From Candidatus Zymogenus saltonus (GTDB lineage Bacteria > Desulfobacterota > Zymogenia > Zymogenales > Zymogenaceae), in contig JAFGIX010000025.1 of assembly GCA_016929395.1 (NCBI GenBank), positions 27,720-91,719 on the forward strand: a stretch of DNA of 64,000 nucleotides. The letters are read 5' to 3'. Of the stretch, positions 5,777 through 57,845 are shown piece after piece (position 1 is the stretch's first letter; each line of letters opens with the position of its first letter). Below the pieces are notes generated by a model. That model was not told the origin of the DNA and did no database searches. It saw nothing but the letters and a program-made list of their open reading frames with translations. The translations under genes and the position numbers were made by a program.

Positions 5777-7390
5777 ATGAAGATATTTATTATAGATCCA
5801 CCGCAGCAGGTTTTTAAGTATTTCATGGGACACATACCTTCTCCCGCGGTGACCCAGCTGGCGGCTTATATGGAGAGGGAGGGACACGAAGTCGAGATAT
5901 TGGATGTCACCACTTTTGAGAACTGCTGGGATGACCTCGAGCGGATGATAAGGGAGGGAAGACCGAATGTAGTGGGCATATCAAACAATTCAACAAACAC
6001 GATAAACAACGCCTTTCACACGGCTACACTGACGAAGATGATTGACCCTAAGATAGTAGTCGTTGGGGGAGGGGCACACATGACGGCACTTCCAGAGGAG
6101 AGCCTTAGTGTCAACGGGGATATAGACTTTATCGTGAGGGGAGAGGGGGAGGCCACGTTCGCGGAGCTGGTCAGCCGGCTGGGAGAGGGGAGAAAAGATT
6201 TTTCGAATATAAAGGGAATCGCATATCTGGACAACGGAAACGGAGGGAATTTCATTCAGACTCCGGATAGGGAGCTTGTGGAGGATATAAACGATCTGCC
6301 GATGCCGGCGTACCGCCTCCTTCCGATGCTCAAAGTAAAAAACCCGGAAGACTATGTAATGGCGTACAGGTTCCCGACCCTCGGGATGATACCTTATGAG
6401 TCGATCATGATTTCAACGACGAGAGGCTGTTTCGGCAAATGTCGTTTCTGCTCGGAGACCGCCTTTTGGCACCACACCTGGAGGTCGAGGAATGCAAAGA
6501 ACATGGTCGACGAGATGGAGCTTTTGAGCAAGGAGTACAACAGGACAAACTTCTACTTCGTCGACAACGCTTTCAACTGGAAGAGGGAGAGGATAACGGA
6601 ATTCATAGAAGAGCTCGAAAGCAGGGAGCTTAAAGGGATAACCTTCTGGTACCAGACGAGGGTAGAACTCTTTTTAAGGGATCTTGATCTGATCGACAGG
6701 CTAAAGAAATTGGGTCTATATCAGATGTCCTTCGGGGTAGAGACGGCGAGTCAGGATATTACGAATAAGTGGGGGAAAAATCAAAGGGTAGGTGATGTGA
6801 TAAAGGCGATGAAGGCCGCCAAGGAGCGGGATCTTGTACTTCTGACAAACGTCATGTGGGGTCACAGGGAGGATACGGCGGAGACCCTGAGGGCCACCTA
6901 CGAGATGATAAAGGGTTACTCCGATATATTCGCGCTCCAGATATTCACCCCGGTGCCGGGGACGCCCTATTATGAGGAATATCTGGAAAATGACATGATA
7001 AAGGAATACAACTGGGATTTGTGGGATATGTTCACGCCGGTCGTGGAGACGGATACGATCCCCCACGACAAGATGTTGAGAACAGTGGAGAAGATACAGT
7101 CGAGGTTTCACTTAAGACCTAAGATACTCTACAAGACATGGTTTTCAAAAAATCCATTTATAAGAAGAAACTACCAGACGACGATGGAGATAGTAAAGAG
7201 AACGCTTTCAAATACGCTCCACGAGGTGCAGACGAACTATCGTCCCTTCGAGGAGTTTATGGAGGAGAAGGGATATTCGATTGAGAAGACGATAAAAGGA
7301 ACGTGTATTGTCAAAGATAGGAGCAAGGGAGAGGGGAACGGGAGTAGGAGGGAGGATAGAAACGGGGACGTTCTGCATGAATCGGCCTAA
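5777..7390 (+). CDS. B12-binding domain radical SAM enzyme (class B), paralog 1
   Basis: N-terminal cobalamin-binding-like Rossmann region (IVVVGGGAHMTALPEE, DFIVRGEGE) and a CX3CX2C cluster motif (TTRGCFGKCRFCSE). Confidence 0.85.
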   Translation: MKIFIIDPPQQVFKYFMGHIPSPAVTQLAAYMEREGHEVEILDVTTFENCWDDLERMIREGRPNVVGISNNSTNTINNAFHTATLTKMIDPKIVVVGGGAHMTALPEESLSVNGDIDFIVRGEGEATFAELVSRLGEGRKDFSNIKGIAYLDNGNGGNFIQTPDRELVEDINDLPMPAYRLLPMLKVKNPEDYVMAYRFPTLGMIPYESIMISTTRGCFGKCRFCSETAFWHHTWRSRNAKNMVDEMELLSKEYNRTNFYFVDNAFNWKRERITEFIEELESRELKGITFWYQTRVELFLRDLDLIDRLKKLGLYQMSFGVETASQDITNKWGKNQRVGDVIKAMKAAKERDLVLLTNVMWGHREDTAETLRATYEMIKGYSDIFALQIFTPVPGTPYYEEYLENDMIKEYNWDLWDMFTPVVETDTIPHDKMLRTVEKIQSRFHLRPKILYKTWFSKNPFIRRNYQTTMEIVKRTLSNTLHEVQTNYRPFEEFMEEKGYSIEKTIKGTCIVKDRSKGEGNGSRREDRNGDVLHESA

Positions 7391-7489
7391 ATTGGGAAAT
7401 CGAGGCCTTGAGGATTTGTGGGGTAAAAAGGAGAAGGGTGTGGTTTGTGGTATATATTAAGTGATGACAAAAAAGGTGATGGGAGGAAG

Positions 7490-8911
7490 ATGAGAGTACT
7501 TATTGTCTCGGCAAACAGAGAGCTGGTTCCAGATCCGGTTTTCCCGTTGGGGGCGGCGTATGTCGCCTCGGCGGCGAGGGAATCGGGTCACGATACGGAT
7601 GTTTTGGATATATGTTTCGCGGATGACATTTCAAGAGAGGTCAAAGATAAAATATCGTCTTTTGGACCGGATCTTGTCGGTGTCTCGATAAGAAACGTCG
7701 ATAATGTCGCCTACCCCTTGGTTCTTACCTACGCCGAGGGACATAAAAACCTCATAGACGAGATACGCTCGTCCCACTTCGGTCCCATTGTGATGGGGGG
7801 GCCTGCCTTTACGCTGATGCCGGAGGAGTTTCTCGATTTCACGGGAGTCGAGATGGGGATACTGGGTGAGGGGGAAGATGCGATTGTGAAGCTTGCAGAT
7901 TCTCTGGAAAACGGGGGAAGCTTGGATAAAGTGCCCGGTCTCATTACAAGGGAGGCGGGCAAAACGCTGCAACGAAACGGAAACAAGACAAGGGTTGACG
8001 TCAACAAGATATGTACCCCCGCAAGGGATCTGCTCGATAGTGCCGCCTATCAGAAGTGGGGCGGCATGGTCGGGATACAGACAAAACGGGGATGTCCCAT
8101 CGACTGTATATATTGTACGTATCCGGTCGTGGAGGGGAAGGATATCAGATTGAGAGATCCGGGGGCCATAGTAGACGAGATAGAGAAAACCAACAAGGAG
8201 TACGGGGCGGACACCTTCTTTATTGTAGACAACGTATTCAATAACCCCCCGGAGCACGCAATAGAGGTTGCCGAAGAGATAAAAAGGAGAAAGATAGGCT
8301 TAAGGTTTTCGGCTTATATGAATCCGGGTTTTGTATCGGAGAGGCTGTTGGGGGTGCTTAAAGATGCGGGTTTTACAGGGGTCGACTACGGTGTGGATAG
8401 CCTTTCGGAGGGGGTGCTTAAAAACCTGAGAAAGAACTTCACGAAGGATAATGTGGTAAGGGCAGTCGAGTTGACAAGGGGGATGGGCATAGAGTGCTGC
8501 CTGAGCATGATATTTGGAGGCCCAGGGGAGACTCTCGACACGCTAAAGGAGACCGTCGATTCGATTGACGAGATTGCCCCGACGGCAGTCTTGGCAATCG
8601 TGGGAATCCGCCTCTATTCAGGAACGGGTATGCACAAGATCGCCAAAAGGGACAGGGTGGTCGGAGAAGAGGGAGTGGGATTGAAGCCGGTATTTTATAT
8701 ATCCCCGGATGTGGCCGATGAGGTGGTGGGCTTTGTGGCGGAGGCATCCCTTAAGCGCAACAACTGGCTCTTCCCAGGGCACATGATTATGGCCGGCCAG
8801 CAGCTTACACCGGATCAAAAGCCGGAGAGGTACGATCAGGGTCCCCTTGCGGAATTCAGGAAGCAGGGGATCAAGGGTAACCTGTGGGAGATGTTTGGCG
8901 CTATGAAATAG
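7490..8911 (+). CDS. B12-binding domain radical SAM enzyme (class B), paralog 2
   Basis: MRVLIVSAN..., IVMGGPAFTLMPEE, GILGEGED, then TKRGCPIDCIYCTY (CX3CX2C). Same architecture as the upstream gene. Start chosen at the ATG at 7490 within the 7445 ORF. Confidence 0.85.
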   Translation: MRVLIVSANRELVPDPVFPLGAAYVASAARESGHDTDVLDICFADDISREVKDKISSFGPDLVGVSIRNVDNVAYPLVLTYAEGHKNLIDEIRSSHFGPIVMGGPAFTLMPEEFLDFTGVEMGILGEGEDAIVKLADSLENGGSLDKVPGLITREAGKTLQRNGNKTRVDVNKICTPARDLLDSAAYQKWGGMVGIQTKRGCPIDCIYCTYPVVEGKDIRLRDPGAIVDEIEKTNKEYGADTFFIVDNVFNNPPEHAIEVAEEIKRRKIGLRFSAYMNPGFVSERLLGVLKDAGFTGVDYGVDSLSEGVLKNLRKNFTKDNVVRAVELTRGMGIECCLSMIFGGPGETLDTLKETVDSIDEIAPTAVLAIVGIRLYSGTGMHKIAKRDRVVGEEGVGLKPVFYISPDVADEVVGFVAEASLKRNNWLFPGHMIMAGQQLTPDQKPERYDQGPLAEFRKQGIKGNLWEMFGAMK

Positions 8912-8972
8912 TAGTGGAGACTTGACAATAAAATATAGAAGCGGACAATAACTTGTACTCGTAATATAGTAT

Positions 8973-11300
8973 ATGAACATTATCTTTATCTCATCTATCT
9001 TCCCGCCTGAATCCGGCGGGCCCGCGACCTACGTCAGGAGGCTGTCCCAGGACTTCCACAACAAGGGCCATCACGTAAAGCTCATCGCACTTTCTGAAAT
9101 AGAGATCGATGTAGATGACCCCCCTTATATAATCAGGATACCAAAAAAAGGCACGATATTTAGGAGGTCATTTAGACTTTTCAGGGCGGTTCTGAAACAC
9201 GGCAAGGATGTGGATATCATTTACGATAATGGAGGTCCCTGGGACACAGGCATACCGATTAGGTGGGCGAATATTTTTTTGAAAAAGAAATTGGTGACCA
9301 AGGTCGTTGGAGACAACGTCTGGGAATATGTGCGAAGAAACAGGTTGACAGATGACGGCATCAATGAATTTCAGGGTAAATTTTACGGTCCAAAGATAGC
9401 TCTCCTGAAGTACTTAAGAAATAAGACAACAATGGGCGCAGATTTAGTTATTACCCCGGGCCACTATCTGGCGGAGCTGGTGGCGGGCTGGGGTGTCAAG
9501 AGGGAAAATATCTCCGTTATTCACAATGCGGTTGATTTTAGCGAAAGGAACCAGGAGATACCAGAGATCATAAAGGGATGGGAGGGATCAAAGAAGATTA
9601 TAACCACCGCGGCAAGGCTGGTGCCCTGGAAGGGTATAGACGGCATAATAAGGGTAATTGCGGAGCTTGATAATGACGTCAATCTTTTGGTGATAGGAGA
9701 CGGCCCGGAGCTTTCAAACCTCAGAAAATTGACGGAAACCTTAGGGATAGACAAGAGGGTTCGCTTTACGGGACGTGTTACTCAAAAGGAAGTTCTCTCC
9801 CTCCTCTCACATTCCGACGTATTTGTCCTGAACACCGAATATGAGGGACTTCCCCATATTATCCTTGAGGCGTTCTCCGTCGGTGTTCCGGTGATTGCCA
9901 CCGATATTTGTGGAAATCCCGAGGTTGTTGAGAATGGTAAAAACGGCCTGTTGGTTCCTGTAAAGGATAATAAAGCGCTGAAGAATGCGATAATGAGGCT
10001 GATCAACGACACCGGATATTCAGCGAGGCTGGTTTCAAATTCAAGAGAGAGGCTTAATTACTTTGGATGGAACAGGCTTTTTGCACAAACGGAGAGAGTT
10101 TTTGACAGGCTTCTCAAGGGAATAAAGATCTTGTTCATAGCTTCTATCTACTATCCCGAATCGGGAGGTCCGGCCACTTACGTGAGGAACCTCGCCCACT
10201 ACCTTTACGGAGAGGGGCACAAGGTGAAGGTAATAGCCTTATCGGAGGTAAATAAGTTACCCGACGATCCTTTCTACCTTTCGAGAATTCCAAAAAGGGG
10301 GAGTATCTTTACAAGGTCTTTGAGCCTGTTTCTTTCTATTGTCAAGTATGGGCGGGATTACGACCTCCTCTACGATACGGGAGGAGGCCCCTGGGATACG
10401 GGCCTTCCGGTTCAAATGGCCAATTTTTTCTTGAGGAAAAGGCTCGCCATCAGGGTAGCTGGAGATATAGTCTGGGAATACGCCAGGAGAAACAGAATAA
10501 CAGTGGACGGACTCGACGAGTTTCAGCTGAAGTCTTACGGTCCCATAATCATGGTGATGAGACTCATAAGAAATTACTTTGCCAGGAGCGCCGACCTTGT
10601 AATATCGGGGAGTAACTACGTTGCGGGACTGACGAAGATATGGGGTGTAGACAAGAAAAAGATATCCGTGACACATAACGCCATCGAGCTGATAAATCCG
10701 AGAAAAATACCCACGCCGGAATTTGAAAAACCGAAGGGGGCGAGAAAGATCGTTGCCACAATAGCCCGCCTCGTTCCATGGAAGGGAATAGACGCCCTTA
10801 TCGAGGTTACGGCACAATTTCCGAAGGATATACACCTTTTGATAATTGGGGACGGACCCGAGAGAGAGAGACTTACGGATTTGGCAAAATCATTGAAGGT
10901 AATAAATCGGATTCACTTCATAGGAAGGGTGCCGAACGAGCAGATAATATCGTTTTTATCCTTCGCCGATGTCTTCGTCCTGAACACGGAATACGAGAGC
11001 CTCGCTCATGTAATTATCGAGGCGTACAACGCCGGTATCCCCGTAGTGGCAACAAATATCACGGGTAATCCGGAGATTATAGAAGACGGTAAGACAGGGA
11101 TCTTGGTTCCGTTGAAGGATAAAGACGCGCTGAAGGCGGCGATAGAGAGGATAATAACGAACAAAAAATTCGCCTCGAAAATTGTATCGGCGTCAAGGGA
11201 AAAACTCCCCTATTTCGGGCTCGAAAGGCAGTTAAAGGAGTCCGAGGAGCTTTTCAAGGATCTAATCTGGGGAAAAGAAGAAGGGAAAGCCGTGCGTTGA
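8973..11300 (+). CDS. Fused tandem GT4 (family 1) glycosyltransferase, two complete GT-B units in one 775-aa polypeptide
   Basis: Both halves start with I(F/L)FI(S/A)SI(F/Y)(P/Y)PESGGPATYVR. Each half carries the GT4 E-x7-E region (EGLPHIILEAFSVGVPVIATDICGNPEVVENGKNGLLV and ESLAHVIIEAYNAGIPVVATNITGNPEIIEDGKTGILV). Confidence 0.8.
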   Translation: MNIIFISSIFPPESGGPATYVRRLSQDFHNKGHHVKLIALSEIEIDVDDPPYIIRIPKKGTIFRRSFRLFRAVLKHGKDVDIIYDNGGPWDTGIPIRWANIFLKKKLVTKVVGDNVWEYVRRNRLTDDGINEFQGKFYGPKIALLKYLRNKTTMGADLVITPGHYLAELVAGWGVKRENISVIHNAVDFSERNQEIPEIIKGWEGSKKIITTAARLVPWKGIDGIIRVIAELDNDVNLLVIGDGPELSNLRKLTETLGIDKRVRFTGRVTQKEVLSLLSHSDVFVLNTEYEGLPHIILEAFSVGVPVIATDICGNPEVVENGKNGLLVPVKDNKALKNAIMRLINDTGYSARLVSNSRERLNYFGWNRLFAQTERVFDRLLKGIKILFIASIYYPESGGPATYVRNLAHYLYGEGHKVKVIALSEVNKLPDDPFYLSRIPKRGSIFTRSLSLFLSIVKYGRDYDLLYDTGGGPWDTGLPVQMANFFLRKRLAIRVAGDIVWEYARRNRITVDGLDEFQLKSYGPIIMVMRLIRNYFARSADLVISGSNYVAGLTKIWGVDKKKISVTHNAIELINPRKIPTPEFEKPKGARKIVATIARLVPWKGIDALIEVTAQFPKDIHLLIIGDGPERERLTDLAKSLKVINRIHFIGRVPNEQIISFLSFADVFVLNTEYESLAHVIIEAYNAGIPVVATNITGNPEIIEDGKTGILVPLKDKDALKAAIERIITNKKFASKIVSASREKLPYFGLERQLKESEELFKDLIWGKEEGKAVR

Positions 11301-11331
11301 CGGCAGATCTATAAAATAAAAAGCCCTGCCG

Positions 11332-12309
11332 CTACCAAGGATTTTTAAACCACTCGATGAATCTCTCGACGCCTTCCTTCATGGACGTGTTTGGATTATA
11401 GCCTAAAAGACTCCTTGCCTTTTCTATATCCGCAAAAGTGCGTTTTACATCTCCCGGCTGGCGGGGCAGCATGACCTTTTCGGTCTCCTTTCCCAGTCCC
11501 GATTCGATCAATTCTATAAGCTCTAAAAGATTAACGGACACCGACTCCCCCAAATTTATTATCTCATAGAAGGGCGTGGTCTCGGATGATATGAAACCAA
11601 ACGCGCCAATCAGCCCGTCTATTATATCATCGATATATGTGTAATCCCTGCTCCCCTTCCCCTGATCGTACACCTCTATTTTAGATCCGTTGTTTATCAG
11701 GTTTGTGAACTTGTGGATCGCCATGTCCGGACGCTGTCTCGGCCCGTATACGGTGAAAAAACGAAAGCAAAGAATCTTCAGGTTGTACAGCTTGTGATAG
11801 GTGTAGCAAAGCTCCTCACAGCATTTCTTGGTAACGCCGTAGGGGGATATCGGCTTGGCCATGAGGTCGTCCTCCGAAAAGGGGATGTTGGGACAGTCGC
11901 CGTAGACGGAGGATGAGGAGGCAAAGAGGAGGTCCTTAATATCGAGCTCCTTCATGGCCTCGAGGATATTGTTTGTGCCGAGGACGTTCACCTCCTGATA
12001 GAGGAGAGGATTCTTTATGGAGGGTCTTACGCCTGCCTTTGCGGCGAGGTGTACAACAAGATCGGGGGAGATCGACCTGAAGGAGTCGATTATAAAATCG
12101 TAGTTCCTGATATCCCCCTCAATGAGCTTAAACCCATCCTTTTTCAGGAGGGATTCAATATTTCTCCTTTTGAATTTCTCGGGATAGTAGTCGTCGAAGT
12201 TATCGATTACGAAAACCTCATTCCCAAGGGAAACGAGCCTATCCGAAAGGTGCGATCCGATAAAGCCCGCACCGCCTGTAACCACTACTTTTTTGATATC
12301 TTTTGACAT
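11332..12309 (-). CDS. NAD-dependent epimerase/dehydratase, extended SDR (UDP-sugar 4-epimerase/UDP-glucuronate epimerase-like)
   Basis: VVVTGGAGFIGSHL Rossmann motif, YxxxK context (YGVTK) and a length of 325 aa. Confidence 0.85.
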   Translation of the reverse strand: MSKDIKKVVVTGGAGFIGSHLSDRLVSLGNEVFVIDNFDDYYPEKFKRRNIESLLKKDGFKLIEGDIRNYDFIIDSFRSISPDLVVHLAAKAGVRPSIKNPLLYQEVNVLGTNNILEAMKELDIKDLLFASSSSVYGDCPNIPFSEDDLMAKPISPYGVTKKCCEELCYTYHKLYNLKILCFRFFTVYGPRQRPDMAIHKFTNLINNGSKIEVYDQGKGSRDYTYIDDIIDGLIGAFGFISSETTPFYEIINLGESVSVNLLELIELIESGLGKETEKVMLPRQPGDVKRTFADIEKARSLLGYNPNTSMKEGVERFIEWFKNPW

Positions 12310-46029: not shown

Positions 46030-46521
46030 ATGAGGATCGGTGTGATATCCGATACGCACATTTCATCCGTTGGGGATGATTTCAAGGATTTCGTAAAAAT
46101 CCACTTTTCCGATGTGGATGTAATAATCCACGCAGGGGACTTTATCGACGTATCCGTTGCAGAATATTTGTACAATTACGCCGAGCTCAATTTCTACGGT
46201 GTATCCGGCAATATGGATCGGGGCGTGATACAGGATGAATTGCCTAAGAAAAGGGTGGAGAATTTCGATGGGGTGAGGATAGGGATTATTCACGGATGGG
46301 GTTCGCCGAGCGATTTGCCGTCGAGGGTCGCCGCAGAGTTTTCCGTAGATTCGGTTGACTGCGTGGTGTTCGGACACAGCCACACGGCGATGAACAGAAG
46401 GGAAGGCGGCGTGCTCCTCTTTAATCCAGGGGCCCCGTTTGACAGGAGGTTTTCGAGGGACAACACCATAGGTTATCTGACAGTGGACAGCGGAATAGAA
46501 GGGGAGATAGTTTCGATTTGA
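46030..46521 (+). CDS. YfcE/MJ0936-family metallophosphoesterase
   Basis: RIGVISDTH...HAGDF...GHSH metallophosphatase motifs. Confidence 0.75.
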   Translation: MRIGVISDTHISSVGDDFKDFVKIHFSDVDVIIHAGDFIDVSVAEYLYNYAELNFYGVSGNMDRGVIQDELPKKRVENFDGVRIGIIHGWGSPSDLPSRVAAEFSVDSVDCVVFGHSHTAMNRREGGVLLFNPGAPFDRRFSRDNTIGYLTVDSGIEGEIVSI

Positions 46522-47039
46522 ACGGCGAAAAAAGAGAGAACCTCTGGGCGCCTTGGAGGATAGAATACATTAAGGGTGAGGGGAGCAGGGAGAAGGGCTG
46601 TATCTTTTGTAACAGACTGAAGGAGGAGAGAGACAGGGAAAACCTGATTCTTGCTAGGGGTGATCACTCTTTCATTATAATGAATCGTTATCCCTACAAC
46701 AACGGCCACCTGATGGTTACCCCGTATCGTCACATTGGCGATATTCTAAAGCTGAAAAGAGAGGAACTGCTCGAGATATTTTCCCTTGTGAAGGTCTCGA
46801 CGGAAGCGATATCCAGAACGATGAATCCCAGCGGATTCAACATTGGGATGAACCTAGGAAAGGTGGCCGGGGCCGGGGTGGACGATCATATTCATGTTCA
46901 TGTCGTGCCGCGATGGGAGGGAGACACAAACTTCATGCCGGTTCTGGGGGAGGTCAAGGTGATCTCGGAGCATATACTATCGACTTACGATACCCTTAAG
47001 GGCGAAATAATAAACTTTTTAGATAAGGAGAAGCCATGA
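46518..47039 (+). CDS. HIT-superfamily (GalT/Ap4A-phosphorylase-like) nucleotide transferase/hydrolase
   Basis: CIFC zinc-knuckle-like segment plus the HIHVHVVPR histidine triad. Confidence 0.7.
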   Translation: MNGEKRENLWAPWRIEYIKGEGSREKGCIFCNRLKEERDRENLILARGDHSFIIMNRYPYNNGHLMVTPYRHIGDILKLKREELLEIFSLVKVSTEAISRTMNPSGFNIGMNLGKVAGAGVDDHIHVHVVPRWEGDTNFMPVLGEVKVISEHILSTYDTLKGEIINFLDKEKP

Positions 47040-47692
47040 AATATATTAAAATAATCCTGTTTACGGCGATTGTAATGATCCTCGTGCTCTTTGCGGTGAG
47101 GAATCAGGGGATGGTGAACTTCGTCTTGGGCTATAAGACCACTTTCATGATGGGGACTGAGGCCAAAGAGGAAGTAAATAAGGAAAAGGAGATAAAAGAG
47201 AAGGCCGGAACCGAAGCGGCCACCCCTAATGGCGAAGTTCCGACGGGCACAGAAGCCGGAGTTGAATTCATTCCATCGGATGAGGTAACGGCCCCCGAAT
47301 CTGTGGTCGTAACGGAGACGGAAAAGGCTCCCAGAGAGATAGGATACGAAAGGGAGTTTGAGATACCCCTCTTCCTGCTCGTGTTTATTGAGGCGTTTGT
47401 CTTGATACTCCTGATGTCCCTTGTGGGAATATTCGAGGATATATCGTTGAGACAAAGAATAAGGGGGCTGAACAAGGAAAATAAAAAGATGAAATCGGAG
47501 CTTAATATCCTTAAAAAGGGCGAAAGGGAACCGGAAAAGACCAAAGCCGGAAAAACGGAAGAAGGCGCCAAGATCACCGATGAAGAGAAATCTGACAAGG
47601 GGAAGAAGGAAGCAAAGAAGAAGGGGTCTTTTTTGAAAAATATCAAAGGGGAAAAGAAAACGCTGCCTGAGGGTGAAGATAAGGGATTGTAA
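47036..47692 (+). CDS. Membrane protein with a LapA-like (DUF1049) N-terminal TM region and a Lys/Glu-rich C-terminus
   Basis: ILFTAIVMILVLFAVRNQGMVNFVLGY, a second TM, then a KE-rich tail. Confidence 0.4.
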   Translation: MKYIKIILFTAIVMILVLFAVRNQGMVNFVLGYKTTFMMGTEAKEEVNKEKEIKEKAGTEAATPNGEVPTGTEAGVEFIPSDEVTAPESVVVTETEKAPREIGYEREFEIPLFLLVFIEAFVLILLMSLVGIFEDISLRQRIRGLNKENKKMKSELNILKKGEREPEKTKAGKTEEGAKITDEEKSDKGKKEAKKKGSFLKNIKGEKKTLPEGEDKGL

Positions 47693-47786
47693 CTTGTTTT
47701 ATTTCCGCCTCGGAGTGAATAGTATTGGAAGAAGAGCGGCGTTGGTGTATTGAGGCTGAAATGGAGAGATGGCCGTTGAATTAAGT

Positions 47787-47943
47787 GAAGATAGGGAGAT
47801 AACGCTTAAAGGCTGTTTGGGGGCGAGGTACCACGAGATATAAATAGTAATATTGAATAAGAGTAGCGATGGTGTTTTGAAAGTTGAGATGGGGAAGTGA
47901 CGCTTAAAGGCTGTTTGGGAGAGAAGTACCACGAGATATAAAA
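47787..47943. repeat. Two ~58-bp direct repeats 97 bp apart in the intergenic region upstream of the radical SAM operon
   Basis: GAAGATAGGGAGATAACGCTTAAAGGCTGTTTGGGGGCGAGGTACCACGAGATATAAA versus GTTGAGATGGGGAAGTGACGCTTAAAGGCTGTTTGGGAGAGAAGTACCACGAGATATAAA. Confidence 0.55.
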
Positions 47944-48087: not shown

Positions 48088-48960
48088 ATGAGATATGAAG
48101 GTATTGTAATCCGCCCGCCAAGCGAGGCGGGAAGTCTGATCCTCCAGGTTACATTGGGCTGCTCTCACAACAAGTGCACTTTTTGTCCGACATACAAAAA
48201 AAAGAAATTCAAGATCAGGCCACTTGAATCCATCAGGGCCGACCTGAAAGAGGTCATGGGGTGCGGGAGGATAAGGAGGATATTTTTGGCCGACGGCGAC
48301 GCGCTCATAATCCCCCAGAAGACTTTAGGTCCGATTTTCGACAGCATAAATGAGTTTATATACGGGATCGACAGGATCGGGATATACGGAAACGTCAAAA
48401 GCATATTGAGAAAGACCCCTGAAGAATTGAAGGCCCTAAAGGAGAAAGGGCTGGGGATAATCTACATGGGTCTTGAAAGCGGTGACGGCGAAATTTTAAA
48501 AAAGGTGAAGAAGGGGACGGGGCCGGAGGATGCCGTTGAAGCGGCGAGAAGGGTCAGGGAGGCCGGAATCCTCCTGTCGGTGACCGTCCTTATGGGATTG
48601 GGGGGGAAGAACGGCTCCAAGCGTCACGCCCTCGAGACGGGGAAGATCCTCTCGGAAATGAACCCCGATTTTGTAGGCGCATTGACCCTGATGATCGTTC
48701 CCGGCACCCCACTGTATGAAGATTTGCAGAAAGGCACATTTGTCCTTCCGGACCAGATGGGTTTTCTGGAAGAGCTCTATCTTATCCTCAAAAGCATAAA
48801 CGTAAACAGCTGTCTCTTTACATCAAACCACGCATCGAACTACCTTCCGTTAAGGGTAAATCTTCCCGATCAAAAAGATGAAGCAATATCTTTGATTCGC
48901 AATATCCTCGACGAAGAGAGGATAGATCTTCTTCGCCCCGAATATACAAGGGGTCTTTAG
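48088..48960 (+). CDS. Radical SAM enzyme with a non-canonical CX4CX2C cluster motif
   Basis: IRPPSEAGSLILQVTLGCSHNKCTFCPTYKKKKF, then a Gly-rich SAM-binding-like segment (IFLADGDAL) and a TIM-barrel-like remainder. Length 290 aa, with no SPASM or B12 domains. Confidence 0.7.
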   Translation: MRYEGIVIRPPSEAGSLILQVTLGCSHNKCTFCPTYKKKKFKIRPLESIRADLKEVMGCGRIRRIFLADGDALIIPQKTLGPIFDSINEFIYGIDRIGIYGNVKSILRKTPEELKALKEKGLGIIYMGLESGDGEILKKVKKGTGPEDAVEAARRVREAGILLSVTVLMGLGGKNGSKRHALETGKILSEMNPDFVGALTLMIVPGTPLYEDLQKGTFVLPDQMGFLEELYLILKSINVNSCLFTSNHASNYLPLRVNLPDQKDEAISLIRNILDEERIDLLRPEYTRGL

Positions 48961-48976
48961 GAATTCACTCCTTATC

Positions 48977-51900
48977 ATGGGATCATATTTCAGAGAAGAT
49001 TTATTTGACAGAAGGATAACACTTCTCGATAGTATTCTCGACTACACCCAGGGCATTGGAATCAGAAATAAAGATTTTTGGATGCTCAAGAAGAGCGATC
49101 TGCGCTTTTGCCTCGGGGAGACGGAGATAAATATACGAATTCCGTTTATATTCGGGGGTGAGAGTGAAGAGATAATTGAAGAGGCCCTGGAGGAGCTTCT
49201 CTCCCTTATAAAGGGACGTATCGAGCCCCCGATTATCTACGACAGCCGCGGCGGCATGATGATATCGGTGTTGGATGAAAAGGTCAAGCTCCCCCCAAAA
49301 GGGTACAGGCTCGGAGGAGATTTCACCACCAAGATCGAATATAACTCCGCACTTGTCACTCTCATTTCGGATTCCCTCATGGATGCGGGGATTATCGTAA
49401 GCTGGCTTTCTCCAAAGCTATCAGGGAGAAAGCTTATTAACGAGCTAACGAGAATTTACAGAAAGGCGATCGAAGAGGAGATAAGGTTCGGCGGGAATGA
49501 AAAGACGGCCTTTCTCACCCACCTTGCGCTATCGAAATTCTTAACCGAAAAGAAGGAGATCATAAAAAAGGTAAGCATAAAGGGAATATCTTATGAGAAG
49601 CTCGAGCGCTCGATAAGCATCTTTTTCTACGCTTTGATCCTCAGCATTATCGAGGATATATTTAACAAATTCAGGAGGAAACAGCTCTCTTACGATCTCA
49701 AGAGGATTGAGTACCTTTTAATGGGGAGCACGACACCCTTTTTCGCCCTCGGCATAAAGAACTCCCTTTTGAACAGTGAGATCAATCCATACAACCTGTC
49801 GCTGAAGATAATATCCAAACTGGAAGGCGTGTACAGCCGGACGGCTAAGAGGGCGATAAGTCTCTTCGATCTCCTCTCCAAAATGACGGAAGCCGTAATA
49901 AGAGACAAGGCGCTTTCCGATGACATCCTGGGATTCTATTCAACCAGCAAGTTCAGGGATGACATATTGGATTATCTGGTACTGTATGACGATCAGAGAG
50001 ATGAGACGAATGCATTTCTCTCACGGCTGGCGTATGACGAAAAAACCTTCAGGAGCCTTTGGGAGGATCAGAAGACGGCATCGAGGTTGATGGTGGGGCT
50101 TTACAAGATCAACGAGAGACATTTTACAGACAAGGAACGAACCACCAAGGTAAAGCAGATGATCAATCATCTGAAGGTCTACAAGAAATGGGGTACACTC
50201 CGCATGTTCTCGACGGGGAAGGAGGGGACAAAGTTCAAGATTTCGGAGGTGCTCAAGCGCTACATCGCTTATAGGGTCGATCTCGGCTACGATACGTACA
50301 TCACCACATCGAAACAAGCCTTTGAAAACAAGAAGAATAAGCTGAAGTTCAACGAACTCGTCCACAGCTACGACGAGGGGCGGCTTTACAGAATTTCCGC
50401 AGATCATAAGCTGACCTTGATAAAAAAGGAGGGGAGAAAGGAGGGCCACCTCTTTGTGGACCTCAAGGGATTTACAAGAAGGACAAGGAAATCGGGAAGC
50501 CTTGTCATGGCGGAGTTTTTAAAGCTCGAGTTTTTTTTACCTATAATAGAGGCCGCAAAAAACTACTACCTCAAAGTGGGAAAAGACCCTTCATTGGGGC
50601 TCGATCTCAACAATCTCCTGGGCGATGCGGTGACCTTTTCGGGAAATATACTTGCGCTGTTTGAGCTGGCAAAAGAGATAAGAAAGATAGTCTCGCAATA
50701 TCAGAAAAAATTGATACAGAAATACCCGGAATTTGACGAAAGGATTCAGAGGGAAAAGTTGAAGTCGAGGTATCAGGCCGATCTCAAGAGACTCAACGAG
50801 AATTCAAAGATGATAATCGGCACTATCATCGAGCTGAACGAGATCATGGATGCAAAGAGGGGCATGAGCCCGGTGGAGATGATGAAGGCCCAGTTGAGCC
50901 ATTTCAACAAGAGCATCGAGGCCTACGTAGACGCCATAGGGGAGATCTCCACAAGGATAAAGGATACGGATCGGGTGGACATAAAAGAGAGGCTGGCCGA
51001 GAGCGAAGGGGTTCTGAGAGACAAGCTGTCCTTCATAAACAAAGGGAAGAAAGAGCTAAAGATGGAAGTGGAAAAGCAGCGCCTGGAAAAGAGATCGATG
51101 GAGTTCTACAAGGAGATATGCCAGGACGAGATAGTACAGATAAGGCGGCTTAACGCAATGCTATCGACTGTCTACAAAAAGAAGACGGAGCTGGTACAAG
51201 CCTATTACGAGAAGCTCGGAGAGATAGTGGATCTTGGTATGAACACCGGGCTATATATCTCTTACGGGGATGTTGTGGAATCGGTTGATCTGAAGGACAA
51301 CATTTGGGGAGACGTCAAGGTAAACATCGCTGATAAAATAAACGAGGCCGCAAGGGGCGCGACAAGGAGTCAGAGCATCAAGAAAAGGGTGGACAGATAT
51401 GTGGAGAGGTGCTGTTTTGAGATGGAAAATCCGAATCTCATCTACCCGTTCAACGTTATAGTCGGAACGGACTATTCCTTGATAAAGCCGATAGATGAAG
51501 AGCCGACCTTCTTTGAGGAGGAGATAGACTCCATCCTTGATTATGCGGAGAGGCTCTTTGCCGATGAGTGCGACGGAGAAAAAAAGGTCTCAGGACTCGA
51601 GATATGGGAGAAGGAAAAGGAGCAGTTTAACAAGGAGTTCATCTCTACGAGTACCGATATATACAACCTCGGGGAGGCCCTGTCCGGGGATGCGCTGAGA
51701 GAGTTTATTCGGGAGAGCAGGGGCCGCCTGTACTTTTTTGAGAAGAGGGTCTTGAGGGGGGAGCTCAATCAAGAATTCTGGAAGCTCTTTGCATTCGAGG
51801 GGACCGAGATTCATCTCATTTTTGGGGTCGAGAACAAAAAGGATCGGGATCTCGTGGAGATATTCAGATACGCCGGCAACATCGATTACACGGGAACCAC

Positions 51901-52042
51901 AAAAAGGGAGCATACGGAGGTTTATGAGATAATCCGTCCCACATCTCTTTTCTACAAGTTTATAATGGACTATCACTTCCTGGAATGGTATGAGGGATCG
52001 AAGGTGAAGGATGAAGAGAGGAAGGGAATTGTGAGAATGTAA
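48977..52042 (+). CDS. Giant (1021 aa) uncharacterised protein with a central class-III nucleotidyl-cyclase-like palm motif
   Basis: GHLFVDLKGFTRRTRKSGSLVMAEFLKLEFFLPIIEAAKNYYLKVGKDPSLGLDLNNLLGDAVTFSG matches FxDxxGFT...GDAxxxxF of adenylyl/guanylyl cyclases. The flanking N- and C-regions are helical and coiled-coil rich. It starts 16 bp after the radical SAM gene. Confidence 0.6.
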   Translation: MGSYFREDLFDRRITLLDSILDYTQGIGIRNKDFWMLKKSDLRFCLGETEINIRIPFIFGGESEEIIEEALEELLSLIKGRIEPPIIYDSRGGMMISVLDEKVKLPPKGYRLGGDFTTKIEYNSALVTLISDSLMDAGIIVSWLSPKLSGRKLINELTRIYRKAIEEEIRFGGNEKTAFLTHLALSKFLTEKKEIIKKVSIKGISYEKLERSISIFFYALILSIIEDIFNKFRRKQLSYDLKRIEYLLMGSTTPFFALGIKNSLLNSEINPYNLSLKIISKLEGVYSRTAKRAISLFDLLSKMTEAVIRDKALSDDILGFYSTSKFRDDILDYLVLYDDQRDETNAFLSRLAYDEKTFRSLWEDQKTASRLMVGLYKINERHFTDKERTTKVKQMINHLKVYKKWGTLRMFSTGKEGTKFKISEVLKRYIAYRVDLGYDTYITTSKQAFENKKNKLKFNELVHSYDEGRLYRISADHKLTLIKKEGRKEGHLFVDLKGFTRRTRKSGSLVMAEFLKLEFFLPIIEAAKNYYLKVGKDPSLGLDLNNLLGDAVTFSGNILALFELAKEIRKIVSQYQKKLIQKYPEFDERIQREKLKSRYQADLKRLNENSKMIIGTIIELNEIMDAKRGMSPVEMMKAQLSHFNKSIEAYVDAIGEISTRIKDTDRVDIKERLAESEGVLRDKLSFINKGKKELKMEVEKQRLEKRSMEFYKEICQDEIVQIRRLNAMLSTVYKKKTELVQAYYEKLGEIVDLGMNTGLYISYGDVVESVDLKDNIWGDVKVNIADKINEAARGATRSQSIKKRVDRYVERCCFEMENPNLIYPFNVIVGTDYSLIKPIDEEPTFFEEEIDSILDYAERLFADECDGEKKVSGLEIWEKEKEQFNKEFISTSTDIYNLGEALSGDALREFIRESRGRLYFFEKRVLRGELNQEFWKLFAFEGTEIHLIFGVENKKDRDLVEIFRYAGNIDYTGTTKREHTEVYEIIRPTSLFYKFIMDYHFLEWYEGSKVKDEERKGIVRM

Positions 52043-52070
52043 TGGCAAATATTTTTTAGGTAAAAAAACG

Positions 52071-52823
52071 ATGAGAAAAAGAGAGATACTTTTTGATTTT
52101 GCGATTGTTTTGCTTTCAACGGCGGTGATTCTTTCTCTTATGGTTTCCAATGTTTCGGCATTTGAGACCGCCGGTGAGCTGAAGGCAAAGGGGGATGAGG
52201 CCTTTTTCAACGGCGACTTTAATGATGCGATTGACTATTACACAGAGGCCATTGAAGAGGACAATGGTTTTGCAGATGCCTATAACGCAAGGGCCTGGGC
52301 CTACAATGTCGTAGGGAGATATTACGATTCGATAGCGGATTGTGACAGGGCCTTAAGACTTGACCCGAGTCTTGTCTACGCCTATATAAACCGTTCCTGG
52401 GCAAAAAACGGCCTGGGTAAATTCAAGGAGGCAATTTCCGACTGCGACGAGGCAATAAGTCTAAGACCTCCCCTTTTTCTTGCAGACGCCTACGTAAACA
52501 GGGCGTGGGCAAAAAACGGCATAGGCTTATTTAAAGAAGCCCTTTTAGACTGCAACAGGGCGATAGAGATAGACCCAAACATCGCCTCCGCATTTACCAA
52601 CAGGGCATGGGCAATGAACGGACTCGGAAGGTTCGGCGAGGCGATATCGGATTGCAACAGGGCGATAGGGATTAAGCCGAATTACATCCTGTCATACTCC
52701 TATTTCAACAGGGGATGGGCTTATTACGAGCTTGGGAGGCACGAAGAGGCCAGAGAAGACTACAGGAGGGCGTGTGATCTTAAGAACGAGCTCGGCTGCA
52801 AATTATACGATAAGTTGAAATAG
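52071..52823 (+). CDS. Secreted TPR-repeat protein
   Basis: Signal peptide, then about six 34-aa TPRs each containing AISDC(D/N)(E/R)AI. Confidence 0.75.
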   Translation: MRKREILFDFAIVLLSTAVILSLMVSNVSAFETAGELKAKGDEAFFNGDFNDAIDYYTEAIEEDNGFADAYNARAWAYNVVGRYYDSIADCDRALRLDPSLVYAYINRSWAKNGLGKFKEAISDCDEAISLRPPLFLADAYVNRAWAKNGIGLFKEALLDCNRAIEIDPNIASAFTNRAWAMNGLGRFGEAISDCNRAIGIKPNYILSYSYFNRGWAYYELGRHEEAREDYRRACDLKNELGCKLYDKLK

Positions 52824-53120
52824 TAAGGAGAAACTGTATCCGAAGTGATTGGGAGGGGCAGTTGGGCAGGGGTGCCGGGGATTGGAAGTGTAGGAAGGCC
52901 GGGGCAAGGATGCGATGATGCGCAATTTCATACAAAGGGGATGGAAATAGAAATTATTCAGGATTTGCCCTCGTCATAACCCGGATTCTGGGGGGGGGTG
53001 ACTGTCGGACGGGATTGCTAATTTGAATAAGGGGAGGGGGGATAAAGATCGGCAGGAGTTGAAAAATATTAAGGGCAAAAAGGGGGGCCGCCTCTTGGAT
53101 TCCGAGAGAGGCTTATCAGC

Positions 53121-54571: not shown

Positions 54572-56209
54572 CTATTTATATTCAAGTCCCTCGATATCCA
54601 TGATCAAACGATTCGCCATCCATCCGTTAATCTGAGCGGAGCCGAAGCCGTGAAATCCGCTCGTCCAGTTGCTGGCGATGAATACGTTGTCGATCGGAGT
54701 CCTGATCGGTATCTTCTGCCACTGCTCTTTATCCATGTAGAAGCCGTATATGATACCTTCATGGTTCAGAGTGTACTCGTTTATCGTTACCGGAGTTATG
54801 ACCTCCATCTCCTCGATGTATCTCTTCTCCTTGATCTCGGGGATAGCGTTGGCCGCAAGGTTTATCAGCTCCCAGGCCTTTTCCTCTTTCATCTTCTGGT
54901 ATTCTTTTTTGTCCTTGGCCCAGATATTGTAATCGCTGAAGGCGTGGAGAACTAAAACCGATTTACCCTTTGGCGCGTATACCGGGTCGCCGTAGTTGGA
55001 GTAGATGGTTATCGACACCGCACCTTCCTTGAAGTTACCCTTCATCATGTTGTCATAGGCGGCGGCGCTGTCTAAAGACGTGTTATAGAATATCTCCGTG
55101 TCTTTATGGCCGAACTTTTTAAGGTCGATATTCAAGCCGAGATAGACGCCGAAGAGGGAGTTTGCTACCTTCATATTTTTAACTTTATCCACGTATTTCT
55201 TCGGCAGGTTTTCCTGGCCGATGAGCTTGTAGATAAGCTGATACGGGTCGGTGTTGGCGACTATGTAGCGTGCGGTGTAGACATCTCCATACTCGGTCTT
55301 GACGCCCCTGGCTAAGCCGTCTTCAATGATTATCTCGGTGACGAGGGTGCCGGTCTTCACGGTGCCTCCCAGCTCCTCGATCCTCTCGGCGTAGGCGTTG
55401 GACAGGTTCTGGCTGGTTCCCATTACATGTACGGGACCGTCTTTAAGATATGTATTGTTTGCCATCAATAACAGGACCGCTGTTTCATCCGGAACGGGAG
55501 CGCCGTAGTATACCCAGAACTGGGAGACAACGGCCTTCAGATCCTCGTTCGTGAAACACTCGTCCAAAATATCCTGCATTGTTTTGCCCTGCCACTTAAA
55601 GAAGGTCTTCTGCTTTAAGGGCACCTGCATCTTTGTGGTAAAGGCCTTGAAGCCGCTGTAGCGAAACAGATTGGATAGAGACATATACTCTTTCGAGAAT
55701 TCAACACAGAGCTTGTGAAACTTGTCGATCCCCTCCGATTCCTCCGGCCACTTCTCCTTCAGGGCGTTGTCCTATCCCTCCCAGGTGGAAGGGAGCGTAA
55801 CGTCCACGCCGCCGGGGTAGATCGATCGATAGAGCTCGGGCAACTGGTAGGTTTCGACCTTGTCGTAGACACCGCAGAGGGTCATGAGTCTTCTCAGGGC
55901 GCCGTCCTCGGTTCTGGGACCTCCCCCGGCCATCTCATGGAGTGATGTCTCGAAGACAAAGTCACCGCGAGTGAAGTTGGTGGCGCACCCCCCTACCTTG
56001 TGGTGCTGCTCTAAAAGTAAGACCTTGAGCCCGTTCGAGGCAAGATGGGCGCCCGCAGAGAGACCGCCCATTCCACCGCCGATTATAATTACGTCGTAAT
56101 CGGCCTCGAAATCGGGAGCCTTTGTCTTTCCACAGCCCGTTATCAAGGATAGAGACGCCGAGACGGCAATTGTTAGAATAATAAACAGCCATCGATTCTT
56201 TTTAATCAT
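54572..56209 (-). pseudogene. CrtI-like FAD-dependent oxidoreductase (lipoprotein-type signal) interrupted by an in-frame TAG (55770-55772) at a Trp conserved in its tandem paralog
   Basis: ORFs 55772..56209 and 54572..55684 are in the same frame. The sequence reads ...VTLPSTWEG-TAG-DNALKEKWPEESEGIDKFHKL..., aligning with TWEEWDNTLKERWPEE of the downstream paralog. It has a DYDVIIIGGGMGGLSAG FAD motif. Confidence 0.65.
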
Positions 56210-56234: not shown

Positions 56235-57845
56235 TTATTCAATTCCTTCCATATCCAGTATAAGTCTCGATCCCATGTAACCGTTTATCTGGGCGGGGCC
56301 AACACCGTGCCAGGCCTTAGTCCAGCTTCCAGCTATGAAAAGGTTATCTATGGGTGTATTGTTCGGTATCTTCTCCCACTGCTCGGTATCCAGGTAAAAG
56401 CCGTAGGGTATGCCGTGATAGTTCTTGGTGAACTCCTCGATCGTTACAGGAGTCATTATCTCCATGACCTCTATGTTTTTTTTGTCCTTCAGCTCGGGGA
56501 TTACGTTGGCCGCAAGGTTTATCAGCTCCCATGCCTTCTCCTCTTTCATTTTCTGATACTCTTTCCTGTCCTTGGGCCAGATGTCGTAATCGGAGTACTC
56601 GAGGAGCGCGACCACCGACTTGCCCTTAGGGGCGTAGATTGGGTCGCCGTAGTTGGAGTAGATGGTAATTGATGCCATCCCCTCGGCGAAATTTCCCTCC
56701 ATCATATTTTTATATACGAGCGTCGTATCCGTGCTTGTGTTGTAGAATATCTCGGTGTCCGTGTAGCCGAGCTTCTTGAGGTCGATGTTCAACCCAAGGT
56801 ACGTCACAAAGAGGGAGTTTGCCGGCTTGAGGGATTTTATCCTTTCCACGTACTTCTTCGGGAAGTTCTCCTCGCCAGCGAGTTTAAAGACAAGCTGGTA
56901 CGGGTCGGTGTTGGCCAGGACGTATCTGGAGGTGTAGACATCGCCGTATTCAGTTTTGACGCCCCTGGCTAAGCCGTCCTCGATGATGATCTCGGTCACA
57001 AGGGTTCCGGTCTTGACGACGCCCTTGTTTTCTTCTATAAGCTCTTTATATGCATTGGCCAGCGCCTGAGATGTGCCCTTGATGTGCCAGACGCTGTCGC
57101 TTAAGAATGCGTCGGTTGCGGCCAGGGTCAGAAGTGCGAGTTGATCGTTAGCGGGTGCTCCATAGTAAACCCAGAGCTGGGAGACGACGGCCTTGAGCCC
57201 CTCATCGGTAAAGCACTCGTCCATAAGCTCGGTCAAGGTCTTCTTGCTCCACGTCATCAGCGACTTGTGTTTCAGGGGCACGGACATCTTCGTCTTAAAG
57301 GCCTTGAAGCCTGTGTAGCGATAGAGGTCTTTTATGGCCAGAATGTCGCTGTAGGTGGTGGATGAAAGCTCGTGGAATTTTTCTATCCCCGCGGCCTCCT
57401 CCGGCCACCTCTCTTTCAGAGTGTTGTCCCATTCCTCCCATGTTGTGGGCATTATAATGTCGACGTCCACGGTAGGATAGATGGAGCGGTAAAAATCGGG
57501 GAGCTCGTAAATATCCACCTTGTCATATACACCGCAAAGTTTCATTACCGTGCCCAAATCCCCCCTGTTCATCTCGTGAAGGGCGACCTCGAACGTGAAA
57601 TCGCCTCTGGTGAAATTGGTCGTACAGCCCCCCACCTTGTGGTGCTGTTCCAGCAGGAGCACCTTTAGGCCGGCGTTGGAAAGGTGGGCGCCAGCAGACA
57701 GTCCCGCCATTCCTCCGCCTACGATGATTACGTCGTAATCCGCCTCGAATGCAGGGGGCTTCTTCTTGGCGCATCCAAAATTGAATATAAGCGCCGTTGA
57801 CAAAGATATCGCAAAAAGAAGTAGAAAAAGATATTTCTTTCTCAT
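56235..57845 (-). CDS. CrtI/phytoene-desaturase-family FAD-dependent oxidoreductase with a lipoprotein-type signal peptide (intact paralog)
   Basis: MRKKYLFLLLFAISLSTALIFNFGC lipobox-like N-terminus, then DYDVIIVGGGMAGLSAGAHL. Length 536 aa. About 65-70% identical to the upstream interrupted copy. Confidence 0.8.
   Translation of the reverse strand: MRKKYLFLLLFAISLSTALIFNFGCAKKKPPAFEADYDVIIVGGGMAGLSAGAHLSNAGLKVLLLEQHHKVGGCTTNFTRGDFTFEVALHEMNRGDLGTVMKLCGVYDKVDIYELPDFYRSIYPTVDVDIIMPTTWEEWDNTLKERWPEEAAGIEKFHELSSTTYSDILAIKDLYRYTGFKAFKTKMSVPLKHKSLMTWSKKTLTELMDECFTDEGLKAVVSQLWVYYGAPANDQLALLTLAATDAFLSDSVWHIKGTSQALANAYKELIEENKGVVKTGTLVTEIIIEDGLARGVKTEYGDVYTSRYVLANTDPYQLVFKLAGEENFPKKYVERIKSLKPANSLFVTYLGLNIDLKKLGYTDTEIFYNTSTDTTLVYKNMMEGNFAEGMASITIYSNYGDPIYAPKGKSVVALLEYSDYDIWPKDRKEYQKMKEEKAWELINLAANVIPELKDKKNIEVMEIMTPVTIEEFTKNYHGIPYGFYLDTEQWEKIPNNTPIDNLFIAGSWTKAWHGVGPAQINGYMGSRLILDMEGIE

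Follow-up and report, generated by a model that had tools for sequence, protein, structure and literature searches.

Most cAMP and cGMP is made by class III nucleotidyl cyclases, which are recently also known to produce cCMP and cUMP. A pair of residues specifies the purine: ATP goes with Lys and Asp, GTP with Glu and Cys or Ser. The closest known systems to the large protein described here are the bacterial class III cyclases CyaB of P. aeruginosa (3r5g), Cya2 (2w01), CyaC (1wc1) and Rv1900c (1ybt). The Pycsar pyrimidine cyclases (the cUMP synthase 7r65 and the uridylate/cytidylate cyclases 8jsz and 8jsf) have the same fold; they are small, and their genes are located in mobile defence islands, next to that of a TIR or transmembrane effector. 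For the radical SAM enzyme encoded next to the large protein, the relatives of known structure are MgmA (9ccb) and OxsB (5ul2), which are class B, cobalamin-dependent methyltransferases with an N-terminal cobalamin-binding domain.

The large protein differs from the class III cyclases listed above in several respects. It is missed by the Pfam model PF00211, its cyclase domain is interrupted by an insertion, and the positions of the Lys and Asp (or Glu and Cys) are taken by Asn and Val. Moreover, family members have around 1,000 residues, with unrecognised N- and C-terminal domains and no fusion to known sensor domains.

Three co-directional genes in Candidatus Zymogenus

The window (the whole stretch of DNA that was analysed, 64,000 nucleotides) contains a locus that the initial annotation had described as a candidate signalling or defence operon, made up of a radical SAM gene, a gene for a 1021-residue protein with a cyclase-like core and a gene for a secreted TPR protein, co-directional and separated by gaps of 16 and 28 nt. 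Indeed, three open reading frames with exactly these gaps are found on the + strand. As set out below, this reading was supported in part: a class III cyclase domain is present, but the data do not support a three-gene operon or a defence system. The features of the locus are as follows.

47783..47942, + strand: two 62-nt direct-repeat copies, intergenic, upstream of the radical SAM gene
48088..48960, + strand: stand-alone radical SAM gene, 290 aa (PF04055, 68.8 bits; cut-off 29.5)
48160..48186, + strand: CX4CX2C iron-sulfur cluster motif (C25, C30, C33; CSHNKCTFC), from the sequence and its conservation in homologues
48977..52042, + strand: large gene, 1021 aa, class III cyclase-homology-domain protein of an unannotated family (open reading frame, homologue searches, model)
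48977..50425, + strand: N-terminal domain of the large protein, mostly helical, residues 1-483
50426..50722, + strand: cyclase homology domain, first half, residues 484-582
50723..51232, + strand: helical (coiled-coil-like) insertion within the cyclase domain, residues 583-752 (model)
51233..51487, + strand: cyclase homology domain, second half, residues 753-837
51641..52039, + strand: C-terminal alpha/beta domain, residues 889-1021 (model; conserved motif DIYNxGxALS)
52071..52823, + strand: TPR gene, 250 aa, with a signal-peptide-like N-terminus

The genes are preceded by an intergenic region of 395 nt that does contain a repeat, as had been noted. The two copies (47783-47844 and 47881-47942) are 85% identical with a period of 98; the repeat is present as a single copy in the locus of the closest relative, L004, and absent in locus L005. 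No Rfam model matched the region, and promoter and terminator scans gave nothing above shuffled expectation. The assignment of the third gene to the TPR proteins was upheld (TPR_1, E = 2.3e-40), and the N-terminus of its product is hydrophobic and by inspection resembles a signal peptide.

The cyclase homology domain of the large protein

Two segments of the large protein, LFVDLKGFT (residues 492-500) and LLGDAVTFSG (residues 547-556), had been singled out as resembling the metal-binding segments of class III cyclases, inside an otherwise unrecognisable helical or coiled-coil scaffold. Both segments are present, and no model in Pfam, NCBIfam or PADLOC matched the 1021-residue protein. For the fold, we used an AlphaFold model based on an alignment of 89 sequences (pLDDT 84.4); an earlier model based on 22 close sequences (pLDDT 63, key strands below 50) was set aside. 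According to the model, the protein carries a complete class III nucleotidyl-cyclase homology domain, a beta-alpha-beta-beta-alpha-beta palm with a dimerisation arm, which is split by a long helical insertion, and the surrounding scaffold is indeed mostly helical or coiled coil.

In the first half of the domain, strand 1 carries D495 (within LFVDLKGFT) and strands 2 and 3 carry G549-D550 (within LLGDAVTFSG), with N546 at the position of the purine-specifying Lys. The insertion follows between the helix after strand 3 and strand 4, and is modelled with long helices at residues 588-628, 632-663, 667-700 and 716-752. Its length varies across the family from 3 to 170 residues (median, 73), the Zymogenus protein having 170. 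The second half comprises the GLYISYG strand, the beta-hairpin arm and a helix with N789-x3-R793 (KINEAARG). A linker of low model confidence (residues 838-888) leads to the C-terminal domain, in which Y896, N897, G899, A901, S903, F963, G967, G973 and E984 are conserved. Residues 1-483 are possibly a sensor or regulatory module.

Sequence searches alone did not reveal this relationship. PF00211 (Guanylate_cyc) matched none of 52 divergent full-length members and, at E <= 10, none of 40 cores from which the insertion had been spliced out, nor were any PDB cyclases found by HMMER (phmmer/hmmsearch), again including the 40 spliced cores. A profile alignment of the spliced core with CyaB, Cya2 and CyaC by hhalign was significant (E = 7.9e-5), and it places D495 and D550 opposite the metal-binding Asp pair and N546 opposite the specificity Lys (IDKFVGD). 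The second half of the domain was not significant in hhalign, which proposed an alternative register for it; N789 and R793 have the canonical N-x3-R spacing and lie within a predicted helix (786-794).

Judged from the alignment, both putative metal-binding Asp residues are conserved, D495 in 89/89 and D550 in 85/89 members, and N789 (82/89) and R793 (83/89) are nearly as constant. The base-recognition positions depart from the canonical pair: Asn546 (75/89) lies four residues before D550, and Val782 (78/89), seven residues before N789, is at the second specificity position under the inferred register. Since Asn546 and Val782 take the places of the purine-specifying Lys and Asp, the substrate and product are not assignable as cAMP or cGMP.

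The domain could also be a pseudo-cyclase within a large structural or regulatory protein, that is, a non-catalytic nucleotide-binding module with a regulatory or scaffolding role that senses ATP or GTP and makes no second messenger. The ATP-binding protein 6yii of P. aeruginosa, which is class III adenylyl cyclase-like, matches the large protein less well in structure than the true cyclases do, and, set beside it, the family has an almost invariant metal-binding Asp pair and Asn and Arg pair. The Asp pair and N789, R793 and R797 are kept in 92-100% of the 89 members, at an overall identity of only about 20% among these, a degree of conservation that is typical of a maintained active site, and the two halves of the cyclase domain are the most conserved regions of the protein (41% and 34%, against 12% in the insertion). 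We therefore regard loss of catalysis as a minority option, with roughly one chance in four in its favour.

Gene family and gene neighbourhood

The large protein belongs to a family that is chromosomal, lacks annotation and occurs in Myxococcota and Desulfobacterota. There are 22 close homologues, and a search seeded with a diverse alignment returned the same close set again without adding to it; a profile search of cluster representatives gave 220 matches at E <= 1e-3 and 115 at E <= 1e-30. The hosts are Candidatus Zymogenus, Zymogenaceae, Thermodesulfobacteriota, Myxococcales and Myxococcota, and the proteins are about 800-1040 residues long. No relatives were detected by tblastn in 72,556 plasmids and 50,697 phage records, and the chromosomal context of the gene is syntenic within clades rather than patchy or mobile-element-like.

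The radical SAM protein has a motif with the spacing C25-x4-C30-x2-C33 (GCSHNKCTFC), as had been read from the sequence. This spacing, CSHN[KR]C[TAS]FC, is kept in 120/120 homologues examined and thus characterises the whole family rather than this one protein; precedents are OxsB and Megacluster-4-11 of RadicalSAM.org. MgmA is the best solved relative (E = 1.2e-14), and with respect to its GCPGN-CTFC one residue is inserted; OxsB also has a homologous radical SAM core (E = 1.5e-6). The alignments begin at residue 175 of MgmA and residue 302 of OxsB, whereas in the 290-residue protein the Cys motif starts at residue 25. Since the alignment starts only at MgmA residue 175, the protein has no cobalamin-binding domain: it is a class-B-like core without it. 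Its NCBIfam matches, class B models included, were all far below the cut-offs, and viperin families were absent among these 25 matches.

The family of this radical SAM protein is very large, with at least 7,996 homologues, in Desulfobacterota. Its gene usually lies upstream of lnt-prfB without the large gene; in 4/4 outgroup contexts it adjoins corC or a metalloenzyme gene, followed by lnt and prfB. The pair of radical SAM and large gene is absent from five distinct radical SAM contexts and is found only in Zymogenaceae-type loci, where the identity of the large protein goes down to 47%. At six distant loci, the large gene has no radical SAM neighbour. Across the close and distant loci its neighbours are variable housekeeping genes, and at two loci a linkage to a CAP-domain gene was seen. 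Co-transcription of the radical SAM gene and the large gene is probable in Zymogenaceae, but the former is not a conserved or dedicated partner of the latter.

The third gene is even less constant. In L004, where the large protein shows 90% identity, it is missing together with the stretch of roughly 1 kb in which it sits; in no other locus examined is it found beside the large gene. The TPR gene is a recent, strain-level, lineage-specific insertion outside any conserved unit. Accordingly, the trio was found in none of the other loci examined, and its recurrence in independent genomes, the expectation for a three-gene system, was not observed.

These data bear directly on the proposal that all three gene products (radical SAM enzyme, cyclase-like protein, secreted TPR protein) work together, encoded by a single functional operon for signalling or anti-phage defence, with modification of the nucleotide product or of the protein by the radical SAM enzyme. 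The short gaps between co-directional genes, the fold common to the Pycsar cyclases and the adjacency of radical SAM and large gene in all Zymogenaceae-type loci speak for it. However, this adjacency is not independent evidence, because it is part of a larger block in which about ten housekeeping genes are syntenic (dprA-topA-trmFO-cutA-dciA-metallophosphoesterase-HIT-LapA-rSAM-BIG, with rSAM and BIG denoting the radical SAM and the large gene), and both the abundance of the radical SAM family away from the large gene and the six distant loci argue against the proposal. For the trio, the proposal is already largely refuted by the L004 locus and by the absence of the trio elsewhere. Nor did the viperin- or Pycsar-like defence logic of the initial annotation hold up: PADLOC matched none of the three proteins, no effector gene (TIR, transmembrane or nuclease) is present at the locus, no viperin model in NCBIfam matches the radical SAM protein, and, unlike the Pycsar cyclases, the large gene has a syntenic chromosomal context and no plasmid or phage copies. 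A defence or mobile-element reading was rejected in view of the PADLOC, plasmid and phage searches together with synteny, and we consider the functional operon as a whole to be highly improbable. With a radical SAM gene that has orthologues far and wide and a TPR gene that is a recent insertion, the locus is best seen as a lineage-specific juxtaposition and not as a signalling or defence system of three components.

Least probable of all, if by little, is that a palm-domain nucleotidyltransferase of the GGDEF or another type, such as a diguanylate cyclase or an oligonucleotide synthase, forms the core in place of a class III mononucleotide cyclase. Two points speak for it: a GGDEF domain is the best single Foldseek match (3icl_B, E = 0.037), and the first motif, which is DxKxFT-like, is similar to D-x-D-x-F-K in GGDEF domains.

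Proposed function and implications

On balance, we favour the explanation that the large gene encodes an active member of a class III cyclase-domain family whose radical SAM and TPR neighbours are a lineage-specific juxtaposition. The protein would be cytoplasmic and chromosomally inherited, with the cyclase homology domain as its conserved heart, flanked by a helical N-terminal domain of roughly 480 residues and a C-terminal domain of roughly 130 residues. By analogy with other class III cyclases, it may act as a head-to-tail homodimer, in which D495 and D550 would bind two divalent metal ions and N789 and R793 would stabilise the transition state, so that a nucleotide-derived signal would be formed from an NTP. 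Regulation or dimerisation may be the role of the helical modules that flank the domain or are inserted into it. In Candidatus Zymogenaceae, the radical SAM gene, an orthologue of a widespread Desulfobacterota gene, would have come to sit upstream of the large gene.

A more far-reaching view, which we put forward as speculation, is that the family is an unrecognised subclass of class III cyclases, confined to Myxococcota and Desulfobacterota, whose Asn/Val pocket would make a nucleotide signal of a non-canonical kind, such as a pyrimidine cNMP or some other nucleotide-derived product, for housekeeping and not for phage defence. The expandable insertion and the N-terminal domain would then be a new type of regulatory module, and in Zymogenaceae the product or the protein itself might in addition be a target of the co-transcribed radical SAM enzyme.

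The large protein is a new architecture of a known enzyme superfamily, and the locus is no new three-gene system. The negative result on the neighbourhood removes a tempting but unsupported hypothesis of a defence system made of a radical SAM enzyme and a cyclase. What is left is a family in which the catalytic core looks intact and the base-recognition residues are non-canonical, and which is a well-defined place to look for a new substrate specificity, or for a new mode of regulation of the cyclase fold by way of an insertion within the domain. Since Pfam, NCBIfam and PADLOC all miss the family, the second-messenger repertoire of Myxococcota and Desulfobacterota is underestimated by current annotation.

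Fold and family of the large protein

ORF calls in the window exactly reproduced the three co-directional genes of the initial annotation, with gaps of 16 and 28 nt:

48088-48960 (+), radical SAM ORF, 290 aa
48977-52042 (+), large ORF, 1021 aa
52071-52823 (+), TPR ORF, 250 aa

The two cyclase-like segments that had been noted in the large protein, LFVDLKGFT (residues 492-500) and LLGDAVTFSG (547-556), were indeed both present. With 22 close sequences as input, the model was of poor quality (pLDDT 63); with 89 diverse sequences, it reached a pLDDT of 84.4 and a pTM of 0.64. Structural matches at ranks 1 to 25 were class III nucleotidyl cyclase domains without exception, among them AC9, AC5 C1, Cya2, CyaC, Rv1900c, soluble guanylate cyclase, bPAC, the Pycsar cUMP and cCMP synthases and the cyclase-like ATP-binding protein 6yii (PDB entry). 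Foldseek by itself scored weakly (best E = 0.037) because the cyclase domain is split, and its compact matches were still cyclase or GGDEF domains. The segment thus does adopt a cyclase/palm fold in the prediction and, as far as prediction allows, the cyclase fold of the large protein is confirmed and very probably correct.

Domains of the large protein
Residues 1-483: helical N-terminal domain; mean identity to distant members, 20%
Residues 484-582: cyclase domain, first half; mean identity to distant members, 41%
Residues 583-752: helical insertion, 3-170 residues across the family (median 73); mean identity, 12%
Residues 753-837: cyclase domain, second half; mean identity to distant members, 34%
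Residues 838-888: low-confidence linker; mean identity to distant members, 9%
Residues 889-1021: alpha/beta C-terminal domain; mean identity to distant members, 28%

What the family keeps is the cyclase core; the insertion is a loop of expandable length, at its longest in the clade to which the large protein belongs. A word-indexed search returned 22 homologues, all of ~1021 aa and 47-92% identical to the large protein; an exhaustive profile search reached 220 cluster representatives at E <= 1e-3, of which 115 also passed E <= 1e-30; most were 800-1040 aa long. According to genome titles, the close set comes from Candidatus Zymogenus, Zymogenaceae and Thermodesulfobacteriota and the more distant members from Myxococcales and Myxococcota; Candidatus Zymogenia is a proposed class within Desulfobacterota (bioRxiv 10.1101/2021.03.22.436540). 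The 1021-aa protein had zero matches in Pfam, NCBIfam, PADLOC and PDB sequences. None of 52 divergent members matched any Pfam model, and therefore the family is unannotated.

The radical SAM protein and gene order

The radical SAM assignment held (PF04055, 68.8 bits versus a cut-off of 29.5), as did the unusual CX4CX2C motif, GCSHNKCTFC (C25-x4-C30-x2-C33), which recurs as CSHN[KR]C[TAS]FC in 120 of 120 homologues. It represents a one-residue insertion compared with GCPGN-CTFC of the best solved relative (PDB 9ccb), the glutamine C-methyltransferase MgmA. MgmA is B12 dependent, whereas the 290-aa protein has no cobalamin-binding domain. Published precedents for CX4CX2C are OxsB and RadicalSAM.org Megacluster-4-11. 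Every NCBIfam match was far under its cut-off. The family is very large, with at least 7,996 matches at E <= 1e-10, of which the top-ranked have 285-332 aa, mostly 290, at 55-65% identity. Outside Zymogenaceae the gene has a conserved linkage: in all four distinct outgroup contexts, corC or a metalloenzyme gene comes next, with lnt (apolipoprotein N-acyltransferase) and prfB beyond it, and the large cyclase-like gene is absent from all four. This order is consistent across loci L013-L017 and L023 (about 7001-11600), where the metalloenzyme gene is of the PF01676 family.

Zymogenaceae-type loci keep the order dprA-topA-trmFO-cutA-dciA(-)-metallophosphoesterase-HIT-LapA-radical SAM-large gene, with a short gap between the last two (~17-38 nt). 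What lies 3' of the large gene is different at each locus: unknown genes, URO-D or an opposite-strand acyltransferase. The third protein, described as a secreted TPR protein, is a TPR protein (Pfam TPR_1, E = 2.3e-40); its N-terminus resembles a signal peptide by inspection only. In the closest relative, L004 (large protein 90% identical), ~1 kb with the TPR gene is missing (window ~52043-53050 versus L004 ~9067-9350), and the genes flanking this stretch are ~90% identical between the two. Lying between the large gene and a NusG_II-domain gene, the stretch was gained or lost at strain level.

At six large-protein homologues outside the clade (L012, L018-L022), no radical SAM gene was found within ~6 kb. 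In the Myxococcales-type loci L012 (4901-5305 and upstream) and L022 (2482-5322), the large gene is divergent from a small unknown gene, beyond which lie glnB (P-II) and an ntrB/ntrC-like two-component pair, a second clade-specific synteny. A gene for a CAP-domain protein (550-600 aa) precedes the large gene in L019 (4202-6004) and L020 (4340-6004), its stop overlapping the start of the homologues P0159 and P0166 (the latter from Myxococcota) by 4 bp; this protein is possibly a genuine partner in that subclade. Since the trio recurs in no other locus examined, and the radical SAM-large gene pair recurs only by common descent within a syntenic block of ~10 genes, the proposed three-gene system is not supported and support for the pair is weak and non-independent. 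Functional coupling of the two proteins is very improbable.

The upstream repeat described earlier was also found, in a 395-nt intergenic region before the radical SAM gene:

47783-47844 and 47881-47942, 62-nt direct repeat, two copies, 85% identity, period 98

It is present in single copy in L004, absent in L005 and without a match in Rfam. Intergenic conservation with L004 is limited to ~130 nt adjoining the start codon. At 46030-47692 lie genes for a YfcE-like metallophosphoesterase, a HIT-family hydrolase and a LapA-like membrane protein, whose 4-bp overlaps (46518/46521, 47036/47039) suggest translational coupling. In this clade, therefore, two nucleotide-hydrolase-type genes lie closely upstream of the cyclase-like gene, separated from it by the 395-nt gap.

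Further observations concern gene integrity. Tandem paralogous amino-oxidase/phytoene-desaturase-like genes follow in the window:

54572-56209 (-) and 56235-57845 (-)

One has an intact reading frame of 536 aa. The other, a single 544-aa ORF in L004 (10629-12263), is broken in the window into ORFs of 370 and 145 aa, which suggests a frameshift, pseudogene or assembly error there. Some relatives from metagenome-assembled genomes have apparently truncated or split genes, namely a 443-aa large-protein fragment, P0292 (L010, 7653-9062), and topA as two ORFs (L003, 1030-3329); these are probably assembly frameshifts.

Active site and proposed function

Conservation was counted over 89 members (mean column identity, 26%). 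D495, G556, G758, G764 and G794 are invariant, and G549, D550, A551, N789, E790, R793 and R797 each reach 90% conservation or more. Insertion-spliced cores were aligned by hhalign with CyaB, Cya2 and CyaC sequences recovered from PDB alignments. In the first half (E = 7.9e-5, probability 61%), D495 and D550 pair with the first and second metal-binding Asp and N546 with the purine-specifying Lys. Because the second half gave no significant alignment (E = 0.16), in a register on non-conserved positions, we infer the transition-state pair N789-x3-R793 from conservation, its place in predicted helix 786-794 and its spacing, which is canonical in class III cyclases. If this register holds, Val782 would occupy the base-specifying Asp position. 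Thus, the active site appears maintained and the specificity pocket appears to be of neither ATP nor GTP type. Catalytic activity is somewhat favored; a pseudo-cyclase is unlikely, and a new cyclase subclass with noncanonical product specificity is quite unlikely.

The initial annotation also likened the operon to defense and signaling systems. The defense reading was rejected: PADLOC had no matches for any of the three proteins, no TIR, transmembrane or nuclease effector was found nearby, inheritance is chromosomal and syntenic, and tblastn against 72,556 plasmids and 50,697 phage records was negative. Likeness to Pycsar is confined to the fold.

The large protein is thus a conserved multidomain protein of ~1000 aa with a predicted class III cyclase fold and conserved metal-binding Asp residues. 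It may act as a homodimer in two-metal nucleotidyl cyclization or a related nucleotidyl transfer, with a signaling nucleotide as output; regulatory or dimerization roles would fall to the N-terminal domain and to the helical insertion within the cyclase domain. The locus is no categorically new system; the large protein belongs to a known enzyme superfamily, as a variant that is new in architecture and sequence and is missed by standard annotation.
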